Assembly (NCBI GenBank): GCA_965203905.1
Contig: CBDBDQ010000005.1
Location: 6,272,001-6,336,000, forward strand
DNA: 64,000 bases
Direction: 5' to 3'
Source of the DNA: Spirochaetia bacterium
Lineage (GTDB): Bacteria; Spirochaetota; Spirochaetia; SZUA-6; Bin103
The translations under genes and the position numbers were made by a program. Shown here piece by piece: positions 11,957-58,917 of this stretch (the stretch's first letter is position 1; the number at the start of each line of letters is the position of its first letter). The notes beneath the pieces are model-generated. The model was not told the DNA's origin, made no database searches, and saw only the letters and a list, made by a program, of their open reading frames with translations.

Positions 11957-11970
11957 CTCCCGTTCCTCCC

Positions 11971-30192: not shown

Positions 30193-30389
30193 CTATCCCT
30201 CCTCGGCGCAGGGGCGAATCGAACTTGGCCGAGCCGTCCGCCGCAGCGCCCCTCATCGTACCTCGAACCGGGCAGCGGACGAACCCGGCGCCGAACCCTG
30301 TGGGATCGGCCGCCCGCGGGCTACGCTGCCCAGGTACCCGGCATCGGTCCCCTGACTTGCCTACCCACGAATTCTGCGGTAGGGTTCTA

Positions 30390-39184: not shown

Positions 39185-39420
39185 TTATTGCGCGGCCACC
39201 CAACTGGTGCCCGGCCCGGAAACGCGCGGTCCCGGCGGCACCAGATGGACGGCCCCGATCGCGTCGCGCACCCGCGGTTCGGCCTTGGCTTCCGCGGCCG
39301 CGATCAACTCCCCAGTCGGCGGGATCGGCGATGTCCTCGAACAGGGGGAACCGGGGGGGTAGAGCGCTCGGATCAGGCGACCGTCCTCGGCCAAAGCACG
39401 TGGCTCACAGGCGGAATCAC
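39185..39420 (-). pseudogene. RES-domain toxin remnant (frameshifted, truncated)
   Basis: GTGA overlap with the antitoxin; fragments VIPPVSHVLWPRTV / YPPVP / LFEDIADPADW / ELIAAAEAK..RVRDAIG..VSGPGTSWV in shifting frames, then stop. Confidence 0.7.
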
Positions 39421-39836
39421 CAAGCGCCGCGTTCCACATCGAGCAAAGCGCGCACGGCCGCCAAGTCCTGTATCGAGCCCGCCAGCAGCCGTTGCAGCGC
39501 CGTCTGCCCGCCAAGTGCCTCATTCGGCTTGCGGAGCCAGCGGTACCCTCGCGACGGATCTCGGAACAGGTATCGCAGGTTCTTGTGAATCCCCATCAGG
39601 ATGGAGAGGCGCTCGCGGGTGTCGCGCGAGATCCGCGACGGCACCAAGTGGCCCGCCTTCCAGCGTGCAAGGGTTCGCGCCGCCGGAGCTCCCAGGAGGA
39701 CCCGCGCCTGCCGATCGCTGAGGTCCCAGCGCTCCGCCAAGTTGAAGAACGCGCGCACCATGGCGGCTGTCTCGGCGTCGCTGATCTCTGCGGCGAGCGG
39801 ACGGACATCGTCATGCACGGCGACGGATGATGCCAC
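39417..39836 (-). CDS. Xre/MbcA/ParS antitoxin
   Basis: AFFNLAERWDL...RERLSILMGIHK...WLRKPN..LGGQTAL. Confidence 0.85.
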   Translation of the reverse strand: MASSVAVHDDVRPLAAEISDAETAAMVRAFFNLAERWDLSDRQARVLLGAPAARTLARWKAGHLVPSRISRDTRERLSILMGIHKNLRYLFRDPSRGYRWLRKPNEALGGQTALQRLLAGSIQDLAAVRALLDVERGAW

Positions 39837-39916
39837 ATGACACAGAATAGTGCTTCATAGCCTGAGGCATGCAATTCATAGGGTTAGATTCCTCGTGAGG
39901 CAATCGTGAGGCAATG

Positions 39917-40141
39917 GGGTGCATTCTTTCTCTGTGGCACCTGCGGCATCTGTGGTACGGGAAATAGAGACCCCTCCCAGAGATTCGATGATGTGGTAAG
40001 CATCTACCCCGGTGATGAGTCGTCGCTTCTGGGACGACTACGAAAGCCTGCTTCCCGCATCGCCCACCCCAGAATCCACCCAGACCCAGCCAGACCCAGC
40101 TCGAGGCGGCCTGACCGCTACCACACTGACGGAATGCACCC
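39917..40141 (+). mobile_element. Internally deleted ISKra4-like mini element (~225 bp)
   Basis: Both IRs present; the 3' part (RFWDDYE...) resembles 47995-48055. Confidence 0.65.
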
Positions 40142-40156
40142 CAGCGGCACCTTGCC

Positions 40157-40234
40157 TCACGTCACCGAGTCTCGCGGTGCGGAGTGCTGCCGGCGCTGGT
40201 GGCGGTAACGGTGGTGAGCCGCGCAGCGCTGGAC
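40157..40234 (-). pseudogene. Detached 3' end of the HNH gene that begins at 47451
   Basis: Translates VQRCAAHHRYRHQRRQHSAPRDSVT*, matching paralog end SLSCAAHHRLRHREYGSSPDGAT*. Confidence 0.85.
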
Positions 40235-40442
40235 TAATGCGAAGCGTCACATTACGCCTTTAGAACTAAACCGCTTCGCGGTAGGGGTGGCGTCGGCCGT
40301 CTCGAGGCGCGGAGCCCTTCCCACGTACAACCCCTATATGGTGTCTGACCTCTACTAACGGGAGATGGGTGGTTGCCCCCGGAGCGTAACGGCGCTCCGG
40401 GGGCTGATGGACCACGCGTCTCTACACCAGGAGGAGTCCATC

Positions 40443-41285
40443 ATGACACCACTGCGCCAGAGAATGATCGAAGACATGCGGGTGCGCAACCTGTCCCCGC
40501 ACACCATCGAGTACTACGTCCGCCAGGTCGCGTTGTTTGCGCGCTACTTCAACCGCTCTCCGGAACTGCTCGGGCTCGACGAAATACGAGCCTATCAACT
40601 GCATCTGGTGCAGGAGCGAAATCTGGGCTGGGGCAGCTTCAATCAGGCGGTCTGCGCTCTCCGCTTCCTGTACCTCAAGACCCTCGGCAAGGACTGGCAC
40701 ATCGAGTCCATCCCGTTCGCCAAGCAGCCCAAGAAGCTGCCGCTGGTCTTGAGCCAGGACCAGGTGCGCGCCGTACTCGATGCGATCACCAACCCGCAGC
40801 ACCGCGTCATTGCCATGACCCTGTATGCCGCCGGGCTGCGCGTTTCCGAGGCGGTCTCCCTGCGGATTACCGATATCGACAGCGAGCGGATGCTGCTGCA
40901 CGTCGTGCAAGGCAAGGGCCGCAAGGATCGTTTGGTGACCTTGGCGCCGCTCCTGCTGCACCACTTGCGCTGCCACTACCGACGCTATCGGCCCCGCCAC
41001 TGGCTGTTTCCCAGCAGGACCTATCGCGACCGCCACGTCACCAGGGATGCGGTGGCGCAGGCCATCGCCAAGGTGCGCCACGTCGTCGCCGGCAAGCCCG
41101 TATCCCCGCATACCTTGCGCCACTGTTTCGCCACCCACCTGCTGGAATCCGGCACCGATCTGCGCACCGTCCAGGCGCTGCTCGGACATGCCTCGATCAG
41201 GAGTACCGTGATCTATACCCACGTCACCCGCAAGCGCATCAGCGCAGTCGAGAGCCCACTGGAGTCGTTGCCACCGCTGCGCTGA
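40443..41285 (+). CDS. Tyrosine recombinase associated with an IS91-type transposase
   Basis: MTPLRQRMIEDM, AGLRVSE, GKGRKDR, HTLRHCFATHLLE, LGH, YTHV. Confidence 0.9.
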   Translation: MTPLRQRMIEDMRVRNLSPHTIEYYVRQVALFARYFNRSPELLGLDEIRAYQLHLVQERNLGWGSFNQAVCALRFLYLKTLGKDWHIESIPFAKQPKKLPLVLSQDQVRAVLDAITNPQHRVIAMTLYAAGLRVSEAVSLRITDIDSERMLLHVVQGKGRKDRLVTLAPLLLHHLRCHYRRYRPRHWLFPSRTYRDRHVTRDAVAQAIAKVRHVVAGKPVSPHTLRHCFATHLLESGTDLRTVQALLGHASIRSTVIYTHVTRKRISAVESPLESLPPLR

Positions 41286-41292
41286 GCGATCC

Positions 41293-42507
41293 GTGCACCA
41301 GCCACCCTTCGAGGTGGCCGACGTCATCCGTACCCTGGCCACTACCGACGGTCGCGTGCCAGGCTTGCGGGTGTCGCAGGCACAACAGCGCGTCATGCGC
41401 GACCTCACAGCCTGCCGTACTGCCAAGCTCGGCGGCCACGTCGATGCTTGCGACGCCTGTGGTGAACTACGCGTATCGTACAACTCCTGCCGCAATCGTC
41501 ACTGTCCGAAGTGCCAGGCGCAGCAGCGCGCCAAGTGGCTGGAGAAGCGCTGCCAAGATCTCCTGCCGGTCCCCTATTTCCACGTCGTCTTCACCCTGCC
41601 GGCGGAACTGGCGCCGCTGGCGCTGCAGAACCAACGCGAAATCTATGGCGCCCTGTTCGCTGCCACCGCCGCTACCCTCAGGACCATCGCCGCCGATCCC
41701 AAGCATCTCGGCGCTGACATCGGCTTCATCGCCGTGCTGCACACCTGGGGCCAAACGCTGCTGCACCATCCTCATATCCACTGCGTCATCCCCGGCGGTG
41801 GGTTGGCACCTGACGCGGCCACCTGGATATCCTGCCGCGACGATTTCTTCCTCCCGGTCCGAGTCCTCTCACAGCTGTTTCGCGGCAAGATGCTGGCGGC
41901 GCTCAAGCAACGCTTCGCTGCCGACCAGCTCCAGTTCCACGGTGCCCTTGCCGAGTTGGCTGATCCCGCTCGCTTCCGCGCACTGTGCCAGCAACTGCGC
42001 GCCAAGCAGTGGGTGGTGTATGCCAAGCCTCCCTTCGGCGGCCCCGAGCAGGTGCTGAAGTATCTCGCCCGCTACACCCATCGCGTCGCCATCGCCAACA
42101 GCAGAATCACCGCTGCTGACGCGGACTCGGTGAGCTTCCGCTACCGGGACTATGCCCGTGGCCGCCGGCACCGGATGATGAAACTTGATGCGGTCGAGTT
42201 TCTGCGTCGTTTCCTGCTGCACGTCCTGCCCGATCGCTTCGTCCGCATTCGTCACTACGGCTTTCTTGCCAATCGTGCACGCAAGGAAAAACTGCCGCTG
42301 TGCCGCTATCTGATTGCCCAAGCCTCCGGCCAGGACCTGATCACTGCACCTGATCTCTCAGTTTCTCTCGAACCTCCCGGCGACGATCACCAACGCTGTC
42401 CGGTGTGCCATGCAGGAACCATGCGCCGCATCCAGGACTTCTGCTCTCAACCCACCTGGGAGTATGAGTACCTGCCTGGTCGCCGCGCTCCCCCTGAGGC
42501 CGCATGA
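41293..42507 (+). CDS. IS91-family (HUH Y2) transposase with Zn-binding N-terminus
   Basis: YNSCRNRHCPKCQ, YFHVVFTLP, HPHIH, YLARYTHRVAI, RIRHYG. Confidence 0.9.
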   Translation: MHQPPFEVADVIRTLATTDGRVPGLRVSQAQQRVMRDLTACRTAKLGGHVDACDACGELRVSYNSCRNRHCPKCQAQQRAKWLEKRCQDLLPVPYFHVVFTLPAELAPLALQNQREIYGALFAATAATLRTIAADPKHLGADIGFIAVLHTWGQTLLHHPHIHCVIPGGGLAPDAATWISCRDDFFLPVRVLSQLFRGKMLAALKQRFAADQLQFHGALAELADPARFRALCQQLRAKQWVVYAKPPFGGPEQVLKYLARYTHRVAIANSRITAADADSVSFRYRDYARGRRHRMMKLDAVEFLRRFLLHVLPDRFVRIRHYGFLANRARKEKLPLCRYLIAQASGQDLITAPDLSVSLEPPGDDHQRCPVCHAGTMRRIQDFCSQPTWEYEYLPGRRAPPEAA

Positions 42508-42980
42508 CTCAATCTCCAGAACACCGTCGGTTCGATCTCATCACGCATCCCTTCGCGCCGCCGTGCCGTTGCTCCTGCGCACCCCTGCGCGGCGCCGGTC
42601 GCGATCTGCCCGTCAACCGCTCGTCGCCGCCTTGTCATGCGGCGCTGTCACCCAGCTCCCCGTTCTGCTCCGCGAGTTCCCGCCTGCCCGAGCACGCCCA
42701 GCACTCCGCCGCCACCGGAATACCGGCGTTCCAATCTCCATAGGCGCGCGGTTTAGTTCAATCAACCCTATCCGAACTGGCCCCGGCCACGGGGCAACGG
42801 CCAGCGCGCCAGCCGTTCACGCGGCCAGCTCGGATAGACTCCTTCTCATAATGTAAAGTGCGGGATTATGTGAAGTAGATGGCAGGACGGGTCCATTTGA
42901 TGGGCTCCAGGCAGCATTAGCGGGTAGTTGCGGTAGCCAGGACTTCGCATTATCGCGCTCCTTCAAGCAAGGAGGCATCC

Positions 42981-44210
42981 ATGCTTGAAGACCATCTCAA
43001 GTTGGCGAGCACTTGTCGCAGACTCCGTCGTGGGCCCGCGTGCGCGTATATAGACGGCTTCGCCGACTGGCTCCATGAGCGCGGCTATCAAGCCAAGTTT
43101 GTCCTGCGTACGTTGGCGGGATGGACCGACTGGCTCACCGCGAAATCGTTTACTGATGAGGCTTTCGTAGCCGGGTACGAGGCGTGCCGGAAGGAGTTGT
43201 CTGAGCGAGGCCGTGTCCGCTATCAGCGGGGACCCAACCGAAATTCACTGTGGGCCGCCACGGTGTTCATCCGGTTCTTGCGGGAGCAGGGCGTCGTGGC
43301 CGTCGAGCAGCGGCTGATTCTGAGCGAACGCTGGCCACTGCTGAAGCAGTTTCGGCAGTGGATGCTGCAACACCGAGGCGTGACACACAGCACCATGGAC
43401 GGCTACGAGCGCTACGTAGCCGATTTCATCGAGGCTCTGGGAGTTGTTCCGGCGCACTACAGCGCCGCTGCGGTGCGCGGCTTTGTGATCAAGCGCTGTG
43501 ACGGTCATAAGGTCAAAACGGCTCAGTCGATCACCACGGCGGTGCGTGCCTTCTTGCGGTTCCTCGCCGCCACCGGGCAGTGCTGCGACGGCCTGCGGCA
43601 CGCGGTGCCACGCTTCGCGTGCTACCAGCTCGCCGCCACGCCGCGGTTCCTTGAGCCTGAGGATCTGGAGAAGGTAGTCGCCAGTTGCACCGATGAGGAT
43701 GCAGTTGGGGCCAGAGATCGGGCGGTAGTCCTGCTGCTCGCTCGGCTAGGCCTGCGCGCCAGCGAGGTCGCCGAGCTGACCTTCGATGCGGTCGACTGGC
43801 AGCACGGGCGCATCGCCGTCTGCGGCAAGGGTCGGCGCCAACACTGGCTGCCGCTGCCGCAGCAGGTCGGCGACGCCATCGTCACCTATCTGCGCCGCGG
43901 ACGCCCGCCGTTGCCGGTGCCACAGGTGTTCATCTCGGCTGTGGCGCCGCGTCGCCCGATGACTCGACAAGCCGTGTCCGGTGTCGTGTGCAAAGCTCTC
44001 CGTCGCGCAGGCATCAAGGCGCCCCACCACGGTGCACATCTGCTGCGCCATTCGGCCGCCACCGCCATGCTGCGCAACGGGGTGTCCCTGGCCGGTATCG
44101 GCAGTGTCCTGAGGCACCGCTCCCCGCAGACCACCGCCCACTACGCCAAGATCGACTTCGAGCTGCTGGGCGAAATCGCCCAGCCGTGGCCGGAGGCACC
44201 ATCATGCTGA
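42981..44210 (+). CDS. RitA tyrosine recombinase
   Basis: LGLRASEV, GKG, HLLRHSAAT, LRHR...YAK. Confidence 0.9.
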   Translation: MLEDHLKLASTCRRLRRGPACAYIDGFADWLHERGYQAKFVLRTLAGWTDWLTAKSFTDEAFVAGYEACRKELSERGRVRYQRGPNRNSLWAATVFIRFLREQGVVAVEQRLILSERWPLLKQFRQWMLQHRGVTHSTMDGYERYVADFIEALGVVPAHYSAAAVRGFVIKRCDGHKVKTAQSITTAVRAFLRFLAATGQCCDGLRHAVPRFACYQLAATPRFLEPEDLEKVVASCTDEDAVGARDRAVVLLLARLGLRASEVAELTFDAVDWQHGRIAVCGKGRRQHWLPLPQQVGDAIVTYLRRGRPPLPVPQVFISAVAPRRPMTRQAVSGVVCKALRRAGIKAPHHGAHLLRHSAATAMLRNGVSLAGIGSVLRHRSPQTTAHYAKIDFELLGEIAQPWPEAPSC

Positions 44211-45115
44211 ACGACCACGTAGAGCGCTATCTCATGCTGCGGCGATCCCTCGGTTACAAGCTGCGGGACACAGCCCGCCATCTCCAGGCGTTCGCAGGTT
44301 TCGCCAGCGACAGGGGCGATACCCATGTCCGCGCCGCTACCGCCGTGGAGTGGGCAGCGCAGGCGTCCTCGCCGCTCATGCGCCATGTTCGACTCCATGA
44401 CGTCGTCCTGTTGGCCCGCTTCTTGTACGCCGAGGACGCGACCCACGAGATACCCCCAGCTCGCTACTTCCAGGTCCGTGTGGTGCGCCAGCCGCCCTAC
44501 ATCTACACGCCGGCTGAGATCGGCCAACTGCTGGTGGCGGCGCACCGTCTGCCCTGCTCCTACGCGCTGCGCCGGCCCGTCTATGCGACCCTGATCGGGC
44601 TCATCGCCGCCACCGGACTGCGGGTCTCGGAGGCGCTCGACCTACGCTTCGACGACCTGCTTCCCAACGCCGTTCTGCGCATCCGCCAAACCAAGTTCGC
44701 CAAGAGCCGACTGGTGCCGCTGCATGCGACCTCGGTCGACGCACTGACCGCGTACTTGCAGGAGCGGCAGCGCTTCGCCAGCGCCGACGACCATCTGTTC
44801 GTGTCAGCGAACCGCCGGCGCATCCCGACACCAATGGCCAGTACTACCTTCCAAAAAGTGATCCGGCTCGCAGGCATCGCTCCTGGCCGCCAGCGCCGCC
44901 CCCGACTGGCGGATCTGCGTCACACCTTTGCCACCAGATCCCTGCAACGCTGTGCGGTCCAGCGCGATTCGGTGGCGCGCCACTTGGTCGCGCTCTCCAC
45001 CTACCTCGGTCACGCTAGCCCCGCCTACACCTACTGGTACTTGGAGGCGACCCCGGAATTGATGGCCGACATCGCCACGGCCGGCGAGAACCTGGTTGCC
45101 GGGAGGTTGGCATGA
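44204..45115 (+). CDS. RitB tyrosine recombinase
   Basis: TGLRVSEA, TKFAKSR, DLRHTFA, STYLGH, TYWY. Confidence 0.9.
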   Translation: MLNDHVERYLMLRRSLGYKLRDTARHLQAFAGFASDRGDTHVRAATAVEWAAQASSPLMRHVRLHDVVLLARFLYAEDATHEIPPARYFQVRVVRQPPYIYTPAEIGQLLVAAHRLPCSYALRRPVYATLIGLIAATGLRVSEALDLRFDDLLPNAVLRIRQTKFAKSRLVPLHATSVDALTAYLQERQRFASADDHLFVSANRRRIPTPMASTTFQKVIRLAGIAPGRQRRPRLADLRHTFATRSLQRCAVQRDSVARHLVALSTYLGHASPAYTYWYLEATPELMADIATAGENLVAGRLA

Positions 45116-46104
45116 CTCCCATCGCACCCCTGATCACCCACTTCCTGCGCGACTACCTCCCTGTGGAGCGCGGCTATAGCCCGCATACCTGCGAGAGCTA
45201 CGCCTATGCCTTCCGTCTGTTGTTCACCTTTGCCGCCGAACGCCTCGGCGTCAGACCGTCGGCGCTTCACCTTGAACATCTCGACGCACCGCTCATCGTC
45301 GCTTTCCTGACCCACTTCGAGGTGGATCGTGGTGGCAGCCCCGCCAGCCGCAACGTCCGCCTGGCAGCAGTGAAAGCCTTCATGCGCTATGTCGAGTTCC
45401 GCCACCCGGCGGCACTGGAGCAAGCCAGGCAGATCCTCGCCATCCCCTCCAAGCGCCATGATCAGCCGCTCGTCCGCCACCTCACCATGGACCAGATCAA
45501 CGCGATTCTGGACGCTCCCGATACCTCCACCCGGTTCGGCATCCGCGACCGCGCCATGCTCCATCTGTGTTTCGCCGCTGCGCTGCGCGTGTCCGAACTG
45601 GTGACGGCGCAGGTAGCAGATCTGTCGCTGCGCGGAACTGCGAGTATCCGAGTCCTTGGCAAGGGCCGCCGTGAGCGCTGTCTCCCGCTGTGGAAGCAGA
45701 CCACCGCTGACCTGCGCGCTTGGCTCGCCGTGCGCGGAGAGGTTTCCACGCCTGAGCTGTTTCTGAACGCTACCGACAGGCCGATGGGTCGCGCCGGGTT
45801 CAAGCACCTCCTGAACAAGCATGTGCGCGCTGCCGTAGCGGACTGCCCCTCGCTGGCCGGACGCTCGATCTCGCCTCACCAGCTCCGCCACAGCTGCGCC
45901 GTCATCATGCTCCAGGCTACCGGTGATATCCGCAAGGTGGCACTGTGGTTGGGGCATGCCGATGTGCGCACCACCGAAGTCTATCTACGCGTCGATCCCA
46001 CCGAGAAGTTGGAGGCCGTCGAAGCCGTGCTGCCACCGGAACTGCGTCGCGGTCGTTTCAAAGCCCCGGACGCTCTGATCGCCGCGCTCCTGGACCCGAG
46101 ATAA
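45112..46104 (+). CDS. RitC tyrosine recombinase
   Basis: LRVSEL, GKGRRER, PHQLRHS, WLGHAD..TTEVY. Confidence 0.9.
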   Translation: MTPIAPLITHFLRDYLPVERGYSPHTCESYAYAFRLLFTFAAERLGVRPSALHLEHLDAPLIVAFLTHFEVDRGGSPASRNVRLAAVKAFMRYVEFRHPAALEQARQILAIPSKRHDQPLVRHLTMDQINAILDAPDTSTRFGIRDRAMLHLCFAAALRVSELVTAQVADLSLRGTASIRVLGKGRRERCLPLWKQTTADLRAWLAVRGEVSTPELFLNATDRPMGRAGFKHLLNKHVRAAVADCPSLAGRSISPHQLRHSCAVIMLQATGDIRKVALWLGHADVRTTEVYLRVDPTEKLEAVEAVLPPELRRGRFKAPDALIAALLDPR

Positions 46105-46185
46105 TGTGCAGCGATCTTGGACACAACTTACTTTCCTGGCAGGAGTTAAGTAGCGCTACTTTACATAATCCCGCACTTCACATTA

Positions 46186-47451
46186 CAAGACCAGGTTCCC
46201 CGGCTCCGCGCCGCCGCCCACCGCGACCGGAACGATGTGGTCCATCTCGAGGCAGAAGCGCGAGCCGCAGCGCCGCCCGCTGTCCCGGTCGACGAAGGTG
46301 CAGCAGCCCTGGTCGCGCCGCCAAACCTCTCGTTTCACCGCAGCCGGAATCGATCTGCCCGACGATCTGGCGGACTTCTCCACCGAAGTCGGCTCCCCTG
46401 CGCCGCCGGTCCTCCGTTCCGGTGTCGAACTACCGGTTGCCACGCGGGACTTCGCCGCCGAAGTCGGCTCCGCCGATCCTGCGCCCCCCGTGCTCCGCTC
46501 CGAAGTCGAATCGCCGGCTGCCACGCGCGGCTTCGCCGCCGAAGGGGACACCGCCGCCGCCGCGGACTTCCCGGGCCGGTCCGGGTTCTCCGCCGCCGCC
46601 GCGACGCGATCTGCCGTCTCCCGCCCCGCTGTCCCGGACGGACGCTCGTCACTGATAGAGTCTGACTTCCGCTTCCGGCGGCGCGGCCGGCTCGGATCGT
46701 AGCGCTCCAGTCCCTCCCGCACCAGCCGCCCGACGAGTTGCCCGACCGTCAGGTGCGGATCCACGTGCGACAGCAGCTCCCGCAGCTGCTGCAGTCCACG
46801 CTGGCACTCGGCGTCGATCACCGCCTTCAGCTCCCAGCGCCCGTCCCCCAGCGCGCGCAGCCGCTCGGCCGGCGCCGCCGCCTCGGGATCCACCTCCGCC
46901 AGCATCTGCTGCACCTGCCGCGTGCTCTTGCCCACCGCCTGCTCCACCAGCTGCTGCCGGGCGTGCGCATCCAGCACCGGCGATGGCGCACCCTGCGCCT
47001 CGCCCGCCGGCGCGGATGGAGCCGAGCCGACACGCGGCGCGGCGCTGGTGCCGGCTCCCGGCGATCCGGTGGCGGCCCGTCCGCCTGCGCTGCGGTCCCA
47101 GCGCTCGAAGGAGTTCTGCAACAGGGCCGCGTTGCTCAGGTTCAGCGAGCCGTCCTGCAGCCACGCGCGCACCCCGCGGGTCTCGCGGCACAGGCGCATG
47201 GCCTTGATACGCCGCCAAGCGGCTGCCTCGGTATAGTGCAGCTCGCGCACGGTGTAGTCGAACAAGCTGGAGTAGCCGAGGCGCAGGTACAGGCGCCGCG
47301 CCTCGATTTCGCGCAGGTGGTCGAGGACGCTGAGCTGCAGCGCCTGCTCGTGGCGGGCGAGCATTCTGGTCCGCTCCAGCAGCACCTGGTCGGGGAGCAC
47401 GGCGACCGTGGAGAGGAGCTCTTCGGAGGCTGCTTCGGTCACGTTCGTCAT
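46186..47451 (-). pseudogene. DUF222-like HNH endonuclease, copy 1, interrupted inside the HNH motif
   Basis: GYSSLFDY..RELHY.E.AAWRRI N-domain; VWRRDQGCC...DHIVP..GG...GNLV, then the RIT end; C-terminus found at 40157-40234. Confidence 0.85.
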
Positions 47452-47680
47452 GGCGTAAATATACTACTGAATTGAAAATGCCTCGAACTTACAGGTCTCG
47501 GACAGGCGTCGGAGATGGCTCAGGACGGGCGTAGCAGGGCGCTATCGAGCCAGCGGGCGCGAAGTGTTCTCTAGAAAGTCGGAAGCGCCGCTACGGCCCG
47601 TAGAGGGCCGTCATGAGCGCATCAGAATGCGTCAAGTGTTTTCTTGCGAATTTTGGGGTTTTTTGGATCGTCAGCCGGCA

Positions 47681-48055
47681 GCATCGGCCGGGACATCTGC
47701 CGCACCGCCGCCTGCTGCGATGCCGTCAGAGCCGCCTCGACGTTCACGGCAAAGACCTCCCGCCACGTCTTTCAACGAGACGGCCGACACCCACACCTCC
47801 GGCGCCAGATCCACGACGTCGCCCATGTTCTCGACGACGCCCACCGCTACAGCAAGCAGCAGTGCTACGACCTCCAGGGCGAGATCAACTACTTCACGGC
47901 CAACCAGCAGCGCATGGACTACCCGCTGTATCGGTCGTGCGGTCTGCCGATCGGCAGCGGGGTCAGTCGAGGGGGCCTGCAAGAAACGTGGTCGCCAATC
48001 CACCCAGACCCAGATCGAGGCTCACTGACCGCTACCACAGTGACGGATTGCACCC
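47681..48055 (+). pseudogene. ISKra4-family transposase 3' remnant with right IR
   Basis: INYFTANQQRMDYPLYRSCGLPIGSG / VEGACK, frameshifted and deleted. Confidence 0.75.
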
Positions 48056-48071
48056 GAGGCAATGTGTGATC

Positions 48072-52142: not shown

Positions 52143-52502
52143 CTCATTCCGGTCCCGCACGGTGCACCTCCGGCGTCCAGCGTAGCGCAGAACCGCCGCG
52201 CGAGGAAGTTGCGCTGTGGACCGACCACGCACGACATTGACACGCTCTCCAAGTGTGCGCGATGCTCATCCTTTCCGGCTGGTGACTGTCAGGACATCTG
52301 TTGCCCAAGCTGGGAGGTGTAGAGTGATGGTCAAAGTGCCGCAGGCGCGCGGCGCAAGCCGGGGTGAACCCGGCGCAGTCGTCCGCCGCGCACTCGACGA
52401 AACCTGACTGCGACTGGCCGCCCGCGTTGCGGGCGCGAGAGACGCCAGGGAGCGGCAGGGTCCCTCCGCAAGACTCTCAAAACTCAACCTGAGGAGTTTC
52501 GT

Positions 52503-54290
52503 ATGCAGATTGTACGAATGAGCATGACCTGCGCGGTGGCGTTGGTCCTGGTGCTGACCGCGACCGGCCTCTGGGCCGCTGGTGAGGACGAGGCGCCGGC
52601 CGCGGCCGACGACAAGAGGTACGTGACCGACCCGGTCACCGGCAAGGTGTACACCGCGCACGAGTACGGCGGGTCGCTGACCTTCGTCAAGGGCAACGAT
52701 GGCGGCTGGATCGACGCCTACAAGGAAAACGCGGTGTCCATGTGGAGCCTGGTTTACGAGAAGCTGGGCAAGCTGGACTGGGCGCTGGACCGGGACGCGT
52801 ATCCGTTCACCGGCGGCTACATGACACCGCTCTACGCGCTGAGAGGGGCGCTGGCGGAGAGCTGGGAACAGCCCGACGACACCACCATCGTCATCAACGT
52901 CCGTCAGGGCGTTCACTGGCACGACAAGGCGCCGATGAACGGTCGCGAGCTCACGGCCGAGGATATCGAACATGCCTTTCAACGTTATCTGGGTCTGGGC
53001 CGGTTCAGTGGCAACGACCCGTCCCCGGGCGGAGGTGAGCTGGTATCCGTGCCGTGGGAATCGGTCGAGGCGACCGACAGATATACGGTCGTTTTCAAGC
53101 TGCAGGAGCCTAGACTCCGTGCCCTCAACCTCATCCTGGACTGGTACCAGATGCTGATCCAGCCCCCCGAGGTGGTCGACGAACATGGCGGCATTACCGA
53201 CTGGCGGCAGGGAGTCGGCACCGGGCCCTACGAGATGACCGACTGGGTTCTGGGCAGTTCCTTCGAATACACCAGGAACCCCAACTACTGGGCTTTCGAC
53301 GAGAAATGGCCGGAGAACCGCCTGCCCTACATCGAAAAGATACACGGCCTGGTCATCGTGGAGCATGCAACGCGCATCGCGGGGCTGCGCTCGGGCACCA
53401 TCGACTTCATCGGTCATCCGGGCTCCACGCAGATCTTCGATATCAACCAGTCCCTGAGTCTGCAACGGACCAACCCCGAAATCAATCAGTACCCGTGGTC
53501 ACAACGATCGGACAACTGTGCCGGCATCAACACCACCGTGGCGCCCTTCGATGACGTCCGAGTGCGCCGCGCGATGCAGATGGCCCTGGACCTCGACACC
53601 ATGAACGATTCCTACTACAAGGGGCTGGGAGGAACGATTCCTCGGGGATTCGTCGGCCGCAAGTTTCCGGCCTACATGACCCCGTACGAAGACTGGTCCG
53701 AAGAGCTGAAGGGATACTACAGCTACGATCCGACCGGAGCCGAGGCGCTCCTCGATGAGGCGGGGTATCCGCGCGGCGCCGACGGCATCAGGTTCAAGAC
53801 CGAGTACATGCACTTCGACCGATTTCCGGTCAGCTGGTCGGAGTTCATGGTTTCGTACTGGCGGCAGATTGGCGTCGAGATCGACATCCTGACCCCGACT
53901 CAGGCGGAACATACGGCCAGGCGTAACGCTGGCGATTGGGCACTGACGTCGGAAGCATGCGGCACCGACGCTGATCCAATGATCATTGCACCTGGTTTTC
54001 GCTCAACAGTTGCTCGCTCGGGAGTCCACGACGCTCAATACGACGCCTGGTTCGAAACCGCTGTGAACGCCTCGACCATCGAGGAACAGCAGAGGATCAT
54101 CAAGCAGATGGACATGCGGTACATCGAGCAGCACTGGATGATCTGGGGTCCCTGGGCGCCGCAGTACAACGTGGCCCAGCCCTGGATCATGGGTTACAAC
54201 GGCGAGGGCATCATAGGCGGAAATACCACCCATACGGTCTTCTCGCGCCTCTGGATCGACAGTGAAATGAAGGAGGCAATGGGTTACTAA
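52503..54290 (+). CDS. ABC substrate-binding protein (family 5)
   Basis: Signal peptide; YGGSL, LAESWE, GTGPY, RNPNYW, PFDDVRVRRAM. Confidence 0.9.
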   Translation: MQIVRMSMTCAVALVLVLTATGLWAAGEDEAPAAADDKRYVTDPVTGKVYTAHEYGGSLTFVKGNDGGWIDAYKENAVSMWSLVYEKLGKLDWALDRDAYPFTGGYMTPLYALRGALAESWEQPDDTTIVINVRQGVHWHDKAPMNGRELTAEDIEHAFQRYLGLGRFSGNDPSPGGGELVSVPWESVEATDRYTVVFKLQEPRLRALNLILDWYQMLIQPPEVVDEHGGITDWRQGVGTGPYEMTDWVLGSSFEYTRNPNYWAFDEKWPENRLPYIEKIHGLVIVEHATRIAGLRSGTIDFIGHPGSTQIFDINQSLSLQRTNPEINQYPWSQRSDNCAGINTTVAPFDDVRVRRAMQMALDLDTMNDSYYKGLGGTIPRGFVGRKFPAYMTPYEDWSEELKGYYSYDPTGAEALLDEAGYPRGADGIRFKTEYMHFDRFPVSWSEFMVSYWRQIGVEIDILTPTQAEHTARRNAGDWALTSEACGTDADPMIIAPGFRSTVARSGVHDAQYDAWFETAVNASTIEEQQRIIKQMDMRYIEQHWMIWGPWAPQYNVAQPWIMGYNGEGIIGGNTTHTVFSRLWIDSEMKEAMGY

Positions 54291-54308
54291 GAGGTTCGCT
54301 TTCGGAGC

Positions 54309-54339
54309 GGCCCCGCAAGACCTCCGGTTTTGCGGGGCC
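54309..54339 (+). terminator. Stem-loop between SBP and permease
   Basis: GGCCCCGCAA...TTGCGGGGCC. Confidence 0.5.
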
Positions 54340-54361
54340 CTCTAAGGGAAACCGGGACTAG

Positions 54362-55366
54362 ATGAGAACCTACATCATCAGGCGACTGTTACTGATGATT
54401 CCGACCCTCCTGCTGCTGACCATCCTGGTCTTTCTGCTGGTCCGTTTCATTCCCGGGGATGTCGTCGACGCGATCGAGGCACAACTGGAATCCTTTAGCC
54501 CCGGCACCGAGGTAGACCGTGAGGTCGTCATGCGGCTGATGGGTCTGGACGTCCCCGTCTACGTGCAGTACGGACGCTGGATAGGGGTGCTGCCGACGCC
54601 CGACCCGCTTACCGGCGAGTCCGAGTTCAGAGGCCTTCTCCAGGGCAGCCTTGGCCGATCCCTGTTCGGCCACTTTCCGATAGAGGCCGAAATACTGCGC
54701 AGGCTGCCGCTCACAATCGAGCTGGGCGTCATGGCCATCATCATTGGTCTGTTAATAGCGCTGCCGGTCGGCATCTACTCGGCGATCCGTCAGGACACGG
54801 CCGTCGACTACGCCGGGCGCACCGTCGCCGTCATCGGCCTGGCGACGCCGAACTTCTGGCTCGGCATCATGGTCATGATCTACCCGGCGATCTGGTGGGG
54901 CTGGTCACCGTCGATGAAGTTTATTCCGTTCCTCGAAGACCCGCTGGGAAATGTCGGGATGTTCATCATTCCCAGTGCGATTCTGGGGACGGCCCTGTCC
55001 GCGGGCACCATGCGGATGACCCGCACCATGATGCTGGAGGTGCTCAGGCAGGACTACATCAGGACGGCCTGGTCCAAGGGCCTCAGGGAGCGGGTGGTGG
55101 TGATCAGACACGCCGTCAAGAATGCCCTCATCCCCATTGTTACCGTGGTAGGCATGCAGTTGCCGCTGGTGGTGGGCGGCTCCGTTATCATAGAGAGCAT
55201 ATTCAACTTGCCGGGGCTCGGTCGTTTCCTGCTGGATGCCCTGAACAGCCGCAACTACCCGATAGTGTCCGGAGTGAACATGTTCTTCGCCGGCGTCGTC
55301 CTGTTGAACAATCTACTCATCGACCTGATCTATCCGTACCTGGACCCTAGAGTACGTTACCAATGA
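54362..55366 (+). CDS. ABC permease (DppB-like)
   Basis: DYIRTAWSKGL, FNLPGLG, DPRVRY. Confidence 0.9.
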   Translation: MRTYIIRRLLLMIPTLLLLTILVFLLVRFIPGDVVDAIEAQLESFSPGTEVDREVVMRLMGLDVPVYVQYGRWIGVLPTPDPLTGESEFRGLLQGSLGRSLFGHFPIEAEILRRLPLTIELGVMAIIIGLLIALPVGIYSAIRQDTAVDYAGRTVAVIGLATPNFWLGIMVMIYPAIWWGWSPSMKFIPFLEDPLGNVGMFIIPSAILGTALSAGTMRMTRTMMLEVLRQDYIRTAWSKGLRERVVVIRHAVKNALIPIVTVVGMQLPLVVGGSVIIESIFNLPGLGRFLLDALNSRNYPIVSGVNMFFAGVVLLNNLLIDLIYPYLDPRVRYQ

Positions 55367-55390
55367 GCGTGAGCGGAGAAGTCCCGGGAT

Positions 55391-56338
55391 ATGAGTGATA
55401 CGACGAGAACGGCGGTCGCCCGCAGTGAGCCCAAGAGACGGGGCGCCGTGGCCGACTTCTTTGTCAGATTGTGGAGAGAGAAGCCGCTGGGCACGGCCTG
55501 CGGGATCATCATTCTGCTGTTGATCGTGGTGGCTATCTTTGCCGATGTTCTGTCGCCCTATCCATACTGGGAGGTTCATCCGGCAGACATGCTGCTCGGC
55601 TCATCAACCCGCTATCTGCTTGGGACCGATCAGTTGGGACGCGACTTTCTGAGCCGTATCATGTACGGTGCTCGTCTTTCGTTGTTTGTCGGCCTGTCGG
55701 CGACCGCGATCAACGTGGTGGTCGCTGTCCTGATCGGGGGCACCTCGGGATTCGTCGGTGGCAAGCTGGACCTGGTGGTGCAGAGATTTGTCGATGCCTG
55801 GATGGCGTTCCCGGGACTGCTCATCCTGCTGTCGGTGATGTCCATAGCGGGCAAGGGTTTGCTGCAGATAATTCTGGTCCTGGGGATATCGGGTGGCATC
55901 GGCGGCTCCAGGATAACGCGCGGCGCCGTCATCGCGGTCAAGGAGAACCTCTATTTTCAGGCGGCCCACGCGGTTGGCGCCTCGCGGTGGACCGTTCTGA
56001 TCCGCCACGTGCTGCCCAACATTGCGGCTCCGGTAATCATCCTGTTCAGCATCAACATCGGTGGGGTGATCATTGCCGAATCTTCCTTGAGCTTCCTGGG
56101 ATTCGGCCTGCCCGCCCAGATTCCAAGCTGGGGAGGTATGCTCAGCCGGGAAGGGCGGGTGTTCATGGAGACCGCGCCGTGGCTGGCGCTCTGGCCCGGC
56201 CTGTTCCTCACGGTTACCGTCTACAGCCTGAACATGTTCGGCGACGCCGTGCGCGATCTGCTCGACCCGCGGCTGCGGGGTAGCGCAACCACGCTCCTGG
56301 GTGGCGGTGCTCGGCTCGGTGCGGACCGCGTCAAGTAG
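55391..56338 (+). CDS. ABC permease (DppC-like)
   Basis: LGTDQLGRD, HVLPN, PSWGGML, GDAVRDLLDPR. Confidence 0.9.
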   Translation: MSDTTRTAVARSEPKRRGAVADFFVRLWREKPLGTACGIIILLLIVVAIFADVLSPYPYWEVHPADMLLGSSTRYLLGTDQLGRDFLSRIMYGARLSLFVGLSATAINVVVAVLIGGTSGFVGGKLDLVVQRFVDAWMAFPGLLILLSVMSIAGKGLLQIILVLGISGGIGGSRITRGAVIAVKENLYFQAAHAVGASRWTVLIRHVLPNIAAPVIILFSINIGGVIIAESSLSFLGFGLPAQIPSWGGMLSREGRVFMETAPWLALWPGLFLTVTVYSLNMFGDAVRDLLDPRLRGSATTLLGGGARLGADRVK

Positions 56339-56917
56339 CCCGACAACGTGCCGCGTGCAGATCCCGGTAGTAGTAGATACCGGTTGCCTTCAGTGCCGCG
56401 GCCGCCCGGGAGCGCTGCTCGGCGATCGGCCATCGGCAGCGCGACGCGGGCGCCCGTGAGCTGCGCCGCGTAGGGTGCGAGCACCATACTCCAGAGCGGT
56501 TTACCAGCTCGCTCGCCAGGCCATCCCACCCCTGAACGACGTCTGCATCCCGTGTGGCGGAACCTGCCAGATCGCCGCCTTCACGTGCGTCGGTTCGTTC
56601 GCTGTACGAGGTGTCCAGGAATGATCGGGAAGCCGCCCACCCGCAACGCCGGGCTGGGTGGATGCGTTGCTGCCACGTTTGGCGCCGCGGTGCTGGATTC
56701 TGCGAAAGTGCCAAAAAAATTGCGCTAGGCACTTGACGGGTCTGGCGCTGCTCGTATCGGCCTCCTGCCGCACGTTCGGGCCCCTCCGACCCTGCGAACA
56801 TCCCGCCATGCGCCCCAGGCCCTTCAGCACCCACCAGCGCCGGCCTGCACCCTTCCCGGGGCCGGTCCCGGGACTCGCCGAAACCGTTCATTTCTCATCC
56901 ATGCTTATATTTACGCC

Positions 56918-58519
56918 ATGGATACCGCGACCGCTACCGGCTTCATCTCCTCGCTCTCCGGGCTCCCCGACCAGGTGCTGCTGGCGCATACCAGGTCCCT
57001 CGTCCTGCACGAGCAGGCGCTGCAGCTCGCCGTCCTCGACCACCTGCGCGAGATCCACGCCCGCCACCTCCACCTGCGCCTCGGGTTCTCCAGCCTGTTC
57101 GACTACGCGGTGCGCGAACTGGGCTACAGCGAAGGTGCCGCCTGGCGCCGTATCAAAGCCATGCGCCTGTGCTCCGATACCGCCGGGTCACGCGAGCGGC
57201 TGCAGGACGGCTCGCTCTCCCTGAGCGCGGCGGCGCAGTTGCAGAACACCTTCGATCTCCTGCAGCGCACGGCGACCGCCGCCGCGGACCCCGGCGCGGC
57301 ACCCACGGCACCGGAGCTGCTGCCGCTCGGCACGGGGACGGCGCGGGGGCCTGGGGCTTCGGGGGCCGGGGCAGCGGCGCCGGCGCGACCGGTGCCGGCG
57401 CTGAACGCGGCGCAGCGGCAGGAGCTGGTGGCGCAGGCGAGCGGCAAGAGCACCCGCGAGGTGAAGCAGTTGTTGGCCGGGGTGGCTCCCGAGCTGGCGC
57501 GGCCGGCCGATCGCATGCGGGCGCTGGGCGCGGGCCGCTGGGAGCTGAAGGTGGTGATCGACGCGGCGTGTCAGTGCGGGATCGAGCAGCTACGGGCACT
57601 GCTGTCACACGTGGACCCGCACCTGACGCTGGGGCAGCTGGTAGAGCGGCTGGTGCAGGACGGCCTGCAGCGCTACGACCCGGGACGACCGCCGCGCGGG
57701 CGCAGAGGCGGGCGCCGGGAGGCAAGTGCGGGCCAGGCGCCGGAGCCGAAGGCGCAGCAAGGGCCAGCGGGCGGGGCGGCTTCGCCGGCGAAGCGGGACG
57801 CGCAAGAGCAACCCGTAGTGCCGACGCCGCCGGAGGGCACGAGCGGCGGTGGCAGCACCCCGGCGCCGGCAGCGCTGTCCGCAGAGGAACCCGCGCGCGG
57901 GATTGGCGGCACCGGCACCCCGGCGGTGGCAGCGCTGCCCGCGTCGCCGTCGGGGCGCGAGACTTGCGGCGGCGGCACCCCGGTGCGTGCCAAGCCAGCG
58001 GCGGCGGCGCCCGGCTCCGCTGCTTCGGCGGCGAAGTCGGTGGCAGATCGTGGGTCCCACGCCACCGTAACGACGCCACGGCCGGCGCCGCCGCCAGACC
58101 AGAGCATGCCGACCGCGCTGGCAGCGGAGGATCGCGGTCGCAGGGCTTCTTCGCCAGCGAAGCGGGCGGGGGCGGCGATGCGGGCAGGAGCGGCGCAGCT
58201 CGATGGCCGTTCGCGGCCGCAGCCCGAGGCAGCCGGCACGTCCGGAGGCAGCGCGCAGCCGCCCCACCGGGCGCCCCGGTCCCGGTATATTCCGGCACCA
58301 GTGCGGCGCGAGGTGTGGCGCCGCGACGGCGGCTGCTGCAGTTACGTCGATCCGCACAGCGGGCGGCGCTGCGGCTCCCGCTTCCTGCTGGAGCTCGACC
58401 ACATCGTTCCCTTCGCGCTTGGCGGCAGCGCCGAACCGGCGAACTTGTCCTTGTCGTGTGCTGCCCACCACCGTCTCCGGCATCGGGAGTACGGATCGTC
58501 GCCAGACGGGGCCACGTGA
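56918..58519 (+). CDS. DUF222-like HNH endonuclease, copy 2 (intact)
   Basis: GFSSLFDYAVRELGYSEGAAWRRI; low-complexity linker; VWRRDGGCC...CGS...DHIVP..GG...NL...CAAHH. Confidence 0.85.
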   Translation: MDTATATGFISSLSGLPDQVLLAHTRSLVLHEQALQLAVLDHLREIHARHLHLRLGFSSLFDYAVRELGYSEGAAWRRIKAMRLCSDTAGSRERLQDGSLSLSAAAQLQNTFDLLQRTATAAADPGAAPTAPELLPLGTGTARGPGASGAGAAAPARPVPALNAAQRQELVAQASGKSTREVKQLLAGVAPELARPADRMRALGAGRWELKVVIDAACQCGIEQLRALLSHVDPHLTLGQLVERLVQDGLQRYDPGRPPRGRRGGRREASAGQAPEPKAQQGPAGGAASPAKRDAQEQPVVPTPPEGTSGGGSTPAPAALSAEEPARGIGGTGTPAVAALPASPSGRETCGGGTPVRAKPAAAAPGSAASAAKSVADRGSHATVTTPRPAPPPDQSMPTALAAEDRGRRASSPAKRAGAAMRAGAAQLDGRSRPQPEAAGTSGGSAQPPHRAPRSRYIPAPVRREVWRRDGGCCSYVDPHSGRRCGSRFLLELDHIVPFALGGSAEPANLSLSCAAHHRLRHREYGSSPDGAT

Positions 58520-58917
58520 TCGCCGCTCGCCCGGGGTGCGAGTTGGGCGGTTGGGCGTCGATCCAAGGGCAACGGAAGTAACGATAGCAGCCGGCTTGTC
58601 GCGCAGCGTGGGATAGTCCTGGCTCGCTCGCTGCGCCAGCTTGTCATGCTTCCGCGGGTCTGCTATCATCGTGGCGAGACCAGGGAGTCTCGCCGGGACC
58701 TCTCTCCTCTCGGAGAAGCTGCCCGGAAAACACCATGCTCAATTGAGAGCATGCTCGACGGAGATGCTGGGCCGATGGACAGTCCGCGGGTCGCTCGTTG
58801 AAGCGACCGCAGCAGGTACATTTCCGATCCACTGACTCGCGCTTCCCGGCAACCGGGAACGGCGACGAGTTCGAGCTCAGCAGGTCCGGCGAGCTCCCTG
58901 ACTCCCTGCTTCGGCTC

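Follow-up and report, generated by a model that had tools for sequence, protein, structure and literature searches.

Genes encoding a helical domain joined to an HNH domain occur in multiple copies in thousands of bacterial genomes, and a selfish HNH element could explain the spread of this widespread, unexplained repeated gene family. One such gene, referred to as copy A (56918..58519, plus strand; 533 aa), is present in a 64-kb stretch of DNA from a high-GC Spirochaetia lineage, the host of the family, and the whole of that stretch is called the window here. Copy A occupies an intergenic site, with an ABC permease gene on one side and an oxidoreductase gene on the other. The initial annotation took it for a single-gene selfish element, which raises the question of whether copy A belongs to a mobile element and, if so, whether its HNH protein is what moves the element.

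Results

The layout initially proposed for the 533-aa protein, with a helical N-terminal domain (N-domain), a linker, and an HNH domain, was borne out by Pfam and by an AlphaFold2 model with a mean pLDDT of 70.1. The N-domain (aa 1-265; 56918..57712, plus strand) was modeled with helices at aa 18-123 and 164-253 and a beta hairpin at 199-211, and the following Ala/Pro-rich linker (aa 266-455; 57713..58282, plus strand) is predicted to be disordered, with a pLDDT below 50 for nearly all of aa 278-454. The HNH nuclease domain (aa 456-533, with the stop codon; 58283..58519, plus strand) was modeled at aa 460-525 as an HNH-like beta-beta-alpha unit and was matched at aa 484-523 by PF01844 with 23.9 bits against a cut-off of 21.4. 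The HNH assignment was also obtained from the HNH families of PHROG, from PDB sequence profile matches to HNH domains, and from Foldseek, by which this part matched HNH folds. Pfam and NCBIfam detected HNH only in the protein and no DDE, DEDD, HUH, serine recombinase, or tyrosine recombinase domain.

The N-domain gave no significant Foldseek match in the PDB (best E 0.44), where weak matches to ParB/SopB/Noc DNA-binding proteins had probabilities of 0.1-0.5, or in BFVD (best E 0.012). As a homodimer, it was predicted with a score of 0.74, compared with 0.00 for the best of three controls, and the runs agreed in at least 88% of contacts with a partner pLDDT of at least 75. In a benchmark, 20 of 30 proteins whose structures were determined as pairs of one chain attained that mark, as did 1 of 23 determined as single chains; these counts are only approximate because our own alignment was used. 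The N-domain is probably a sequence-specific DNA-binding dimer. Among 18 intact copies of a relative genome, dN/dS was lowest in the N-domain (0.29), intermediate in HNH (0.49), and highest in the linker (0.84), and the median identity among paralogs on the same contig was 91.7% for the N-domain compared with 74.6% for the linker. The N-domain is under purifying selection.

The description of the protein as DUF222-like held for a remote relation and did not hold as a direct match to PF02720, which found nothing in the window protein at E ≤ 1 (gathering score, 24.4 bits). Below its threshold, PF02720 did match 5 of 74 family members, the best of them with E 8.9e-5 and 22.4 bits, and PF01844 was carried by 44 of the 74. 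By an Atlas feature search, the second-nearest cluster (0.95, level with the first) was named DUF222 domain-containing protein, although PF02720 was present in just 12% of the members of that cluster. The clusters related to the N-domain alone numbered 6576 at E ≤ 0.001.

Three CTTCG-N4-CGAAG palindromes noted earlier in the linker-coding DNA of copy A were confirmed at 57780..57793 (CTTCGCCGGCGAAG, within a perfect 16-mer at 57779-57794), 58023..58036 (CTTCGGCGGCGAAG), and 58149..58162 (CTTCGCCAGCGAAG). The motif was observed five times in the window against an expectation of 0.05, a number reached by none of 100 shuffles, and the remaining two instances (46450 and 46531) are both in the second copy, copy B. 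Across 59 loci, 206 palindromes (2.8 per kb) were located inside ORF matches and 40 (0.06 per kb) outside, and perfect palindromes outnumbered one-mismatch variants (232 vs 59). In 38 ORFs, the codon before the motif was NCT in 159 of 174 instances, with the encoded residue varying among T, P, and A, and the Ser codon of the motif was TCG in 172 of the 174 compared with a background of 40%. Judging from this codon usage, the palindrome is under nucleotide-level selection, by which NCT-TCG is retained as the encoded residue varies. Conservation did not extend to the sequences flanking the palindromes, and palindromes were absent from distant family members; a long disordered linker with nucleotide-conserved palindromes is a feature of the closer relatives only. 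An RNA hairpin is less likely than a DNA site because the palindrome exhibited no evident compensatory changes and its one-mismatch variants exhibited no G-U bias. The earlier suggestion that the product binds internal palindromes would be compatible with this selection and with the predicted N-domain homodimer.

The conserved leader of copy A (56713..56917, plus strand), which includes an A-tract (56713-56719), a TTGCGC box, and a -35-like TTGACG (56733-56738), was likewise confirmed, being common to both window copies and to 10 copies from 6 genomes. A proximal -10-like TATATT (56906-56911) is located just 6 nt upstream of the ATG of copy A, implying a leaderless mRNA, and a -35/-10 pair abutting the ATG was present in nearly all loci. 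The spacing from TTGAC to the ATG was 185 nt in copy A and 184-186 nt in seven of eight measured loci, the exception (L040, 158 nt) being owing to a deletion. A role of the leader as a structured or guide RNA was rejected as unsupported, since Rfam returned no family for it and the consensus fold of 10 leaders by RNAalifold was weak (-6.33 kcal/mol, with a covariation term of -0.94).

The initial annotation reported no terminal inverted repeat (TIR) or target-site duplication (TSD), which turned out to be wrong, as both window copies have inverted repeats flanked by direct repeats of 9-10 bp. For copy A, the element limits initially given as 56690-58519 are, accordingly, replaced by those of a TIR-bounded unit A at 56517-58621. 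Its left TIR (56517..56541, plus strand) begins with CAGGCCATCCCACC, its right TIR is at 58597..58621 (minus strand), and a 10-bp direct repeat, GCTCGCTCGC, directly abuts them at 56507..56516 and 58622..58631 as a candidate TSD. The TIR is imperfect, in that 19 of 26 positions agree between the left end and the reverse-complemented right end (null 99th percentile, 17), and a direct repeat of at least 9 bp beside an inverted repeat as good as that of unit A was found in 2 of 3000 shuffles. Other candidates were discarded. An inverted repeat at 56633-56654 and 58529-58550 and a counterpart at a similar position in copy B had local scores (22-26) no better than those of the best chance pairs elsewhere (17-22); the 9-mer GGGTGCGAG (56473 and 58534), considered as alternative ends, had no matching right end or duplication; and the likeness of the left end to the start of an McrB-like gene at loci L001 and L004 proved to be a local alignment of the leader only.

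The diverged second copy noted nearby was also confirmed, at a distance of about 9.5 kb, and its protein shares with that of copy A 61% identity in aa 9-253 and 57% identity in aa 442-523. It belongs to unit B (39917..48055, minus strand), which is bounded by TIR-L (48035-48055) and TIR-R (39917-39937) and by a perfect 9-bp TSD, CATTGCCTC, at 48056..48064 (left side on the minus strand) and 39908..39916 (right side). The two TIRs match at 19 of 26 positions (null 99th percentile, 17), and none of 3000 shuffles reached both this and the duplication. A foreign insertion of about 6 kb of other mobile DNA (about 40229-46185) splits the ORF into a 5' part (about 46186-47451), which holds the two palindromes, and a 3' remainder (40157-40228). 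A leader is also present in unit B. A second copy of TIR-L is located internally (40121-40141), adjoining the gene, and marks off a 225-bp MITE-like piece (39917-40141), the left part of which is repeated upstream of the gene.

The ends of unit B are related to those of the relative genome (14-19 of 26 positions; null 99th percentile, 17), whereas the TIRs of unit A matched neither set beyond the null mean (10-14 of 26), without a detectable relation. Such unrelated ends, the extra internal TIR of unit B, and the absence of a transposase-like domain from the protein would each be consistent with the HNH gene being carried by non-autonomous units, which an unlinked conventional transposase mobilises in trans via the TIRs, as cargo that aids persistence, for example by DNA cutting that favours retention or gene conversion. 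IscB and TnpB nucleases help IS200/IS605 elements to persist through retention or gene conversion in this manner. The relation between the ends of unit B and those of the relative genome argues against such a passenger role, since it is found despite a protein identity of about 55-60% and is as expected if the ends and the gene travel together. Purifying selection on the protein across copies argues against it as well.

Copies of the family are numerous. At least 23 protein clusters, that of copy A and 22 at 77-88% identity, were on the same 7,785,191-bp contig among the 120 matches listed, and 35 of 63 related loci came from one 4.56-Mb Spirochaetia genome, in unrelated contexts. The copies of relative genomes share ends that are sharply defined; of 29 anchored loci, 4 had flank repeats matching at 9 of 9 positions and 3 at 8 of 9, compared with 0 and 1.8%, respectively, for mismatched flank pairs, and a 627-bp deletion derivative (L007:2290-2916) retained both ends. 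No TIR or TSD was found in three other genome lineages, in which homology among copies stops near the stop codon, and nhmmer profiles of the ends of the relative genome matched the window only weakly, in the promoter/ATG region. A program that looked in 48 loci for direct repeats beside an inverted repeat missed known cases, because chance extension of repeats shifts the register, and its output was not used as evidence for or against. A search for empty sites among the 63 loci found none, and a plasmid search gave one weak HNH-only match.

The filler that separates the TIRs from the conserved gene core depends on the lineage and includes pieces of other genes, so that the units enclosed by the TIRs could be composite vehicles. 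One such piece, upstream of the copies of the relative genome, gave no Pfam family; it may correspond to the C-terminal end of a type IIG restriction-modification enzyme. This variable filler agrees with mobilisation of the gene as cargo, as do the recurrence of the right-end motif at about -95 in the units of the relative genome and the left boundary of L058, a close relative of copy B (85% nt), where homology is lost at -313 beside an unrelated gene end and no B-type TIR was found. Two further observations speak against a passenger role. In the 64-kb window and the 63 loci of 6-14 kb, the end motifs were nearly all in HNH units, left-extended variants of them, or the deletion derivative, with one stray right-type motif. 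Furthermore, no partner transposase was identified near the copies, as none of the 63 loci had a homolog of the rve, IS91-like, or recombinase-trio proteins of the window, and their flanks, which were mostly unique, had no recurrent second gene. Taken together, mobilisation of an HNH passenger by another enzyme seems rather unlikely to us.

Spread without transposition was also considered. The protein could be a homing or gene-conversion nuclease that spreads by cutting pre-existing repeats, with break-induced conversion homogenising the copies and the palindromes serving as recognition or cleavage sites; MITE-like repeats or the paralogs of the gene itself might be the repeats targeted. Modular homing nucleases have a similar architecture, consisting of a DNA-binding module, a long tether, and HNH. 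The best structural hit for the HNH part, a weak one (E 0.11), was to a nicking endonuclease, which points in the same direction, as does the MITE-like piece of unit B. The related REP13E12 loci of mycobacteria, moreover, are reported to rank among the regions most often affected by gene conversion (PMC13061034). However, perfect 9-bp duplications of unrelated sequence are a signature of transposition, the unique flanks do not suggest pre-existing repeats, and recognition sites in its own gene would mean self-targeting. We consider this explanation improbable.

Finally, the genes could constitute an ordinary cellular family of paralogs, such as a restriction- or defence-linked HNH nuclease, which was duplicated and is immobile now or has always been so, with the end repeats being incidental. 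Vertical, syntenic inheritance was found for two locus pairs, L014/L015 and L021/L032, in which both flanks are common to two related genomes, and McrBC-like genes adjoin L001 and L004 in two genomes, in keeping with such a family. An ABC-transporter operon is also located upstream of both copy A and L042, but orthology of these two was rejected, as the nucleotide identity of L042 is higher with copy B (74.7%) than with copy A (71.8%); this synteny does not represent orthology because the operon is paralogous within L042 itself. The accumulation of 35 of the 63 loci in unrelated contexts of one genome, the TIR and TSD statistics, and the retention of both ends in the deletion derivative all oppose an immobile family, and PADLOC models gave no defence family at E ≤ 0.01. 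An immobile paralog family is very improbable.

Discussion

The explanation that we favour, albeit tentatively, is that unit A represents an insertion sequence-like selfish element of about 2.1 kb, the sole gene of which encodes an N-domain dimer joined by a disordered tether of about 190 residues to HNH. The initial description as a single-gene selfish element is supported by the copy number, the ends, and the gene content; movement driven by the HNH protein, which was part of that description, is not included in this support. It is possible, if more doubtful, that the DUF222-like/HNH protein is itself the transposase, of an undescribed class, acting as a dimer with two tethered HNH domains and with the palindromes as assembly or control sites. 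We infer for this case that the HNH protein, and not another enzyme, would do the cutting and joining and that it would bind the TIRs or the palindromes, and trans-mobilisation or composite vehicles are possible as well. We know of no HNH nuclease with demonstrated transposition activity.

If the HNH protein acts in this way, it would be expressed from its own promoter, which abuts the ATG, as a leaderless mRNA, and the dimer would bind the terminal inverted repeats of the element. The two tethered HNH domains could then cut the element ends, excising the element, and nick the target with a stagger of 9-10 bp, and gap filling and ligation by host repair would generate the duplications of 9-10 bp. 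The CTTCG-N4-CGAAG palindromes would be cis-acting sites maintained by DNA-level selection, most likely as extra dimer-binding sites for assembly, autoregulation, or interaction from copy to copy.

The family is of importance as a testable mobile element in which inverted repeats and target duplications occur together with deletion derivatives and with a cis-element selected at the DNA level. Should the HNH protein be the catalyst, transposases, of which few enzyme classes exist, would gain a new one, and a compact, dimeric nuclease of modular build with a defined DNA motif would become available for study; the same mechanism could also apply to the DUF222-HNH/13E12-type repeats of Actinobacteria. 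If it is cargo, it would be a further case, like IscB/TnpB, of a nuclease riding a transposon to the benefit of the transposon.

Of the systems known, the DUF222-HNH/REP13E12 genes of mycobacteria and other Actinobacteria are similar in joining a helical N-domain to HNH at the C-terminus and in being dispersed multicopy genes without a defined function or mobility mechanism. They differ in that the window protein has no PF02720 match and its host is a high-GC spirochete, that the closer relatives in the present family have the palindrome-bearing disordered linker, and that TIRs and TSDs of 9-10 bp are documented here, whereas we know of none described for REP13E12. Excerpts of a 2026 preprint state that the mycobacterial REP13E12 members "lack defined biological function" and give 87 gene conversion events in 10 of 14 genes (PMC13061034), and partial texts of two other reports count REP13E12 among repetitive elements (PMC10589994) and give DUF222 as a domain fused to HNH (PMC3592412). 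The mobile DNA inserted in copy B has a parallel in the prophage attachment site that the excerpted preprint places within REP13E12 (PMC13061034).

Classical insertion sequences with TIRs and duplications of 8-10 bp resemble the present element in size (about 2 kb), in having one gene, TIRs, TSDs, and many copies, and in their internally deleted derivatives and nested insertions, and differ in that the product of the present gene belongs to no recognised transposase class. A full-text literature search for phrasings of "HNH transposase" gave no match, and papers listed as combining HNH, TIR, TSD, and insertion sequence deal with IscB/ISC, casposons, Kolobok, and other systems.

IscB/ISC elements (OMEGA, IS200/IS605) are alike in carrying an HNH nuclease on mobile DNA and a conserved region upstream of the ORF. 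Unlike IscB, the present protein has no RuvC, its leader has no Rfam family or supported consensus structure, and the NCBIfam model NF040563 matches its HNH part only, with 19.9 bits against a cut-off of 175. The TIRs and TSDs of the present element are a further difference, as IS200/IS605 elements, to our knowledge, have neither. The partial text of one report describes IscB/ISC elements as thought to be non-autonomous (PMC4810608).

Modular HNH homing and nicking endonucleases, such as those of the I-HmuI type and phage HNH nickases, share the combination of an HNH beta-beta-alpha-metal unit with a separate DNA-binding module. In contrast to these, the present gene is located outside introns and inteins and not beside a cognate target gene, and its copies occupy unrelated intergenic sites with target duplications.

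Results

The HNH gene family is high-copy. Copy A, the HNH gene under study (ORF 56918..58519, plus strand; 533 aa), is the sole long ORF at its position, and the same 7,785,191-bp contig carries at least 23 clusters including copy A, among the 120 matches listed of 1429 at E ≤ 0.001. The other 22 clusters showed 77-88% identity over 430-569 aa. Within the 23, the median identity was 91.7% for the helical N-domain, 74.6% for the disordered Ala/Pro linker and 87.1% for the C-terminal HNH, and the peptide encoded by the palindrome CTTCG-N4-CGAAG was present in 1-3 copies in each, at the same three positions. A genome scan gave 63 related loci, each in a Spirochaetia or Spirochaetales MAG, with 35 of them on one 4.56-Mb chromosome (OZ241863.1); the window's own genome is not among these loci, and its further copies are therefore known as proteins only. 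For 18 intact OZ241863.1 copies (median dS about 0.11-0.16), dN/dS was 0.29 for the N-domain, 0.49 for the HNH and 0.84 for the linker. The protein is thus of importance to persisting copies, and the amino acids of its linker are hardly so.

The three palindromes that the initial annotation had reported in copy A were found exactly where it had placed them, within the linker-coding DNA. The motif occurs five times in the 64-kb window compared with 0.05 expected, a count reached by no shuffle, and the two remaining instances are within the diverged copy B on the minus strand. In 59 related loci, ORF matches contained 206 palindromes (2.8 per kb); a further 40 (0.06 per kb) were located elsewhere, mainly where the protein match ended before reaching the linker. 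Every copy was read in a single frame. Codon analysis of 174 instances from 38 intact ORFs indicated that the residue preceding Ser was T, P, A, I or S, yet its codon was NCT in 159; the Ser codon was TCG in 172, compared with a background of 40%, and the residue preceding Lys was encoded by GCG or CCG in 166. Because the NCT and TCG codons are kept while the residue changes, the bases are fixed and the peptide is free to vary. Perfect copies numbered 232 versus 59 one-mismatch variants, among which neither compensatory pairs nor a G-U bias was found, and no conservation was found in the 18 nt on either side. These features, together with the retention of bases over peptide, favor a sequence-specific site on double-stranded DNA over an RNA hairpin. 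The palindrome is present in closer relatives (roughly >55% identity) and missing from distant ones.

The initial annotation saw no terminal inverted repeat (TIR) or target-site duplication, which was wrong because units A and B, the elements containing copies A and B, each have inverted repeats and direct repeats of 10 bp and 9 bp, respectively. Unit A (56517-58621, plus strand) is bounded by imperfect inverted repeats (19/26 positions) abutted by the 10-mer GCTCGCTCGC at 56507-56516 and 58622-58631, a combination reached by 2 of 3000 shuffles. Unit B (39917-48055, minus strand) reads, in minus-strand order, CATTGCCTC, GGGTGCAATCCGTCACTGTGG (48055 downwards), the gene, ...CCACAGAGAAAGAATGCACCC (ending at 39917) and CATTGCCTC again; none of 3000 shuffles had a direct repeat of at least 9 bp adjoining an inverted repeat as good. 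When the OZ241863.1 copies were aligned, a sharp left end, GGGCGCACTTCCAATTTGTTGG..., was located up to ~345 nt 5' of the ATG and an equally sharp right end, ...TTTTGGAAATGCGCCC, ~150 nt past the stop; the two ends are inverted repeats at 19/26 positions, and the DNA beyond them is unrelated. Flanking direct repeats matched at 9/9 in four of the 29 end-anchored loci and at 8/9 in three more, compared with 0 and 1.8%, respectively, for mismatched left/right flank pairs, some of the 29 anchors being spurious, which only dilutes the signal. The B ends agreed with the OZ241863.1 ends at 14-19/26 positions (null 99th percentile, 17), and the A ends had no detectable relation to either (10-14/26, the null mean). 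Both ends and two palindromes were retained in a 627-bp internally deleted copy (L007:2290-2916). The element has been mobilized in a TIR-dependent manner that leaves 9-10 bp of target sequence duplicated. Near unit A, a 9-mer, GGGTGCGAG, similar to the first bases of the unit B TIR, was also present at 56473-56481 (44 nt outside the left end) and 58534-58542 (14 nt past the stop), and no right end matching it was found there.

Lineages differ in the DNA that separates the inverted repeats from the conserved core (leader and ORF); in unit B it includes ~290 nt of unrelated sequence. In OZ241863.1 units, the right-end motif recurs in direct orientation at about -95, and in most of them the left TIR is separated from the HNH gene by the remaining 3' part of a decayed coding gene (L038:4059-5894) with nested deletions; this gene matched no Pfam family, and its C-terminus may resemble type IIG restriction-modification enzymes. 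At another locus (L010:3766-5827), the interval from a far-left TIR motif to the HNH gene contains a tandem pair of putative endonuclease genes of the Uma2 family (PF05685). In two different genomes (L001:3056-5591 and L004:2855-5648), the HNH gene is head-to-head with McrB-like AAA and McrC-family genes (PF07728, PF10117), and the downstream flanks of the two differ from each other. A 426-bp direct repeat with 91% identity flanks the copy in L020 (5202-5600 and about 7570-8000), the right end of which is unlike the family's.

The HNH domain of copy B is broken after "...NLVL" at ~46185, and the remainder, "CAAHHRYRH...", resumes at ~40228 with a stop at 40157. The foreign insert (40229-46185) is ~5.95 kb of nested mobile DNA, in which a tyrosine recombinase is encoded at 40365-41285, an IS91-type Y2 transposase at 41293-42507 and a recombinase-in-trio layout of three tandem tyrosine recombinases at 42981-46104. 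Its junction on the minus strand is ...GGTCTTG/TAATGTG; CTTG is an IS91 target tetranucleotide. A second copy of the unit B left end, ~15 nt past the stop, forms with the right end a 225-bp MITE-like piece (39917-40141), the first ~75 nt of which recur at the true left end (48055 downwards). A 412-aa rve integrase-core protein (48628-49866, minus strand; 31.9 bits, just below the cut-off of 32.6) is encoded ~570 bp from the left end of unit B and is without homologs among the 63 related loci, and an Xre/MbcA/ParS-type antitoxin-like gene (39417-39836, minus strand) lies just past the right end.

The sole Pfam match of the copy A protein was PF01844 (HNH) at aa 484-523 (23.9 bits; cut-off, 21.4), and in NCBIfam its HNH part alone matched IscB, far below threshold (19.9 bits; cut-off, 175). 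The AlphaFold2 model, based on 66 family sequences (mean pLDDT 70.1), had confident N-domain helices at 18-123 and 164-253 with a beta hairpin at 199-211, a pLDDT below 50 for residues 278-454 (~180) and a confident HNH-type unit at 460-525. A HMMER search with the N-domain alone gave 6576 clusters at E ≤ 0.001, of which 169 were at E ≤ 1e-30, and a C-terminal HNH was present in 44 of 74 aligned family members. The earlier description as DUF222-like is fair for a remote relation and does not extend to family membership, because DUF222 matches were weak and sub-threshold in 5 of the 74, the copy A protein had none in Pfam, and a nearby cluster in a language-model atlas, named "DUF222 domain-containing protein", has PF02720 in 12% of its members. 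In a structure search against PDB and BFVD, the N-domain model (pLDDT 82) had no significant match; ParB/SopB/Noc DNA-binding domains were weak but recurring hits. Helix-turn-helix-like stretches may be present at about residues 59-85 and 176-189, as read by eye rather than called by a tool. The N-domain homodimer prediction scored 0.74 (best of three controls, 0.00), a level reached by 20 of 30 solved same-chain pairs versus 1 of 23 solved single chains, which holds only roughly because our own alignment was used; contacts agreed by at least 88% between runs, with a partner pLDDT of at least 75. The modeling supports dimerization of the N-domain; a dimeric protein would be well matched to a palindromic site and to nicking in pairs.

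A -35/-10 pair was found in nearly all copies (TTGACT-17-TATACT in OZ241863.1 copies; TATATT at 56906-56911 in copy A). Because the -10 box ends 6-7 nt ahead of the ATG, a leaderless mRNA is predicted. A ~200-nt leader, common to both window copies and to eight loci in other genomes, starts with an A-tract, followed by a TTGCGCGC box and CTTGACG, with a TTGAC-to-ATG spacing of 184-186 nt in seven of eight measured loci. It matched no Rfam family and no consensus fold was supported; we read it as probable promoter/control DNA, not guide RNA.

Discussion

The element encodes a single protein, under selection and having no known transposase domain. The most economical reading, held tentatively, is that the element is mobilized by its own product, a predicted DNA-binding dimer to which HNH nucleases are tethered. 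Less probably, the HNH nuclease is cargo and the element is mobilized in trans.

Two locus pairs have both flanks in common between OZ241863.1 and OZ241907.1, so some copies are probably old and vertically inherited, and no empty site was found among the related loci. In L058, which is 85% identical to copy B, homology stops at -313, where the end of an unrelated gene is adjacent. Inter-copy homology ends near the stop codon in three further genome lineages, in which no end repeats were found. A homing or gene-conversion role for the HNH protein is improbable in our estimation.

Two window regions, 11877-12844 and 29438-30209, are 85-86% identical to the two flanks of the HNH unit in L056 (OZ241863.1). 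They are 16.6 kb apart in the window, and the stretch between includes low-GC DNA (24-29 kb). They may mark a single site occupied by an island, or the matches may be to paralogous genes. An Opp-like ABC transporter operon lies 5' of the HNH gene both in L042 (1717-5363) and in the window (52286-55980), collinear with 65-75% identity. In L042, a second operon of this kind lies downstream of the HNH gene, which is itself closer to copy B. The element may favor the 3' ends of Opp-like operons, or the arrangement may be chance.

No paper on an "HNH transposase" was found in the literature outside subscription journals; a prior description in the latter, including Gordon et al. 1999, is possible. 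A paper retrieved for DUF222 (PMC12236494) was a false match, concerning DUF2225. The literature covered for DUF222 and REP13E12, including PMC10589994, PMC3592412 and PMC13061034, mentions them only as repeats of unknown function.
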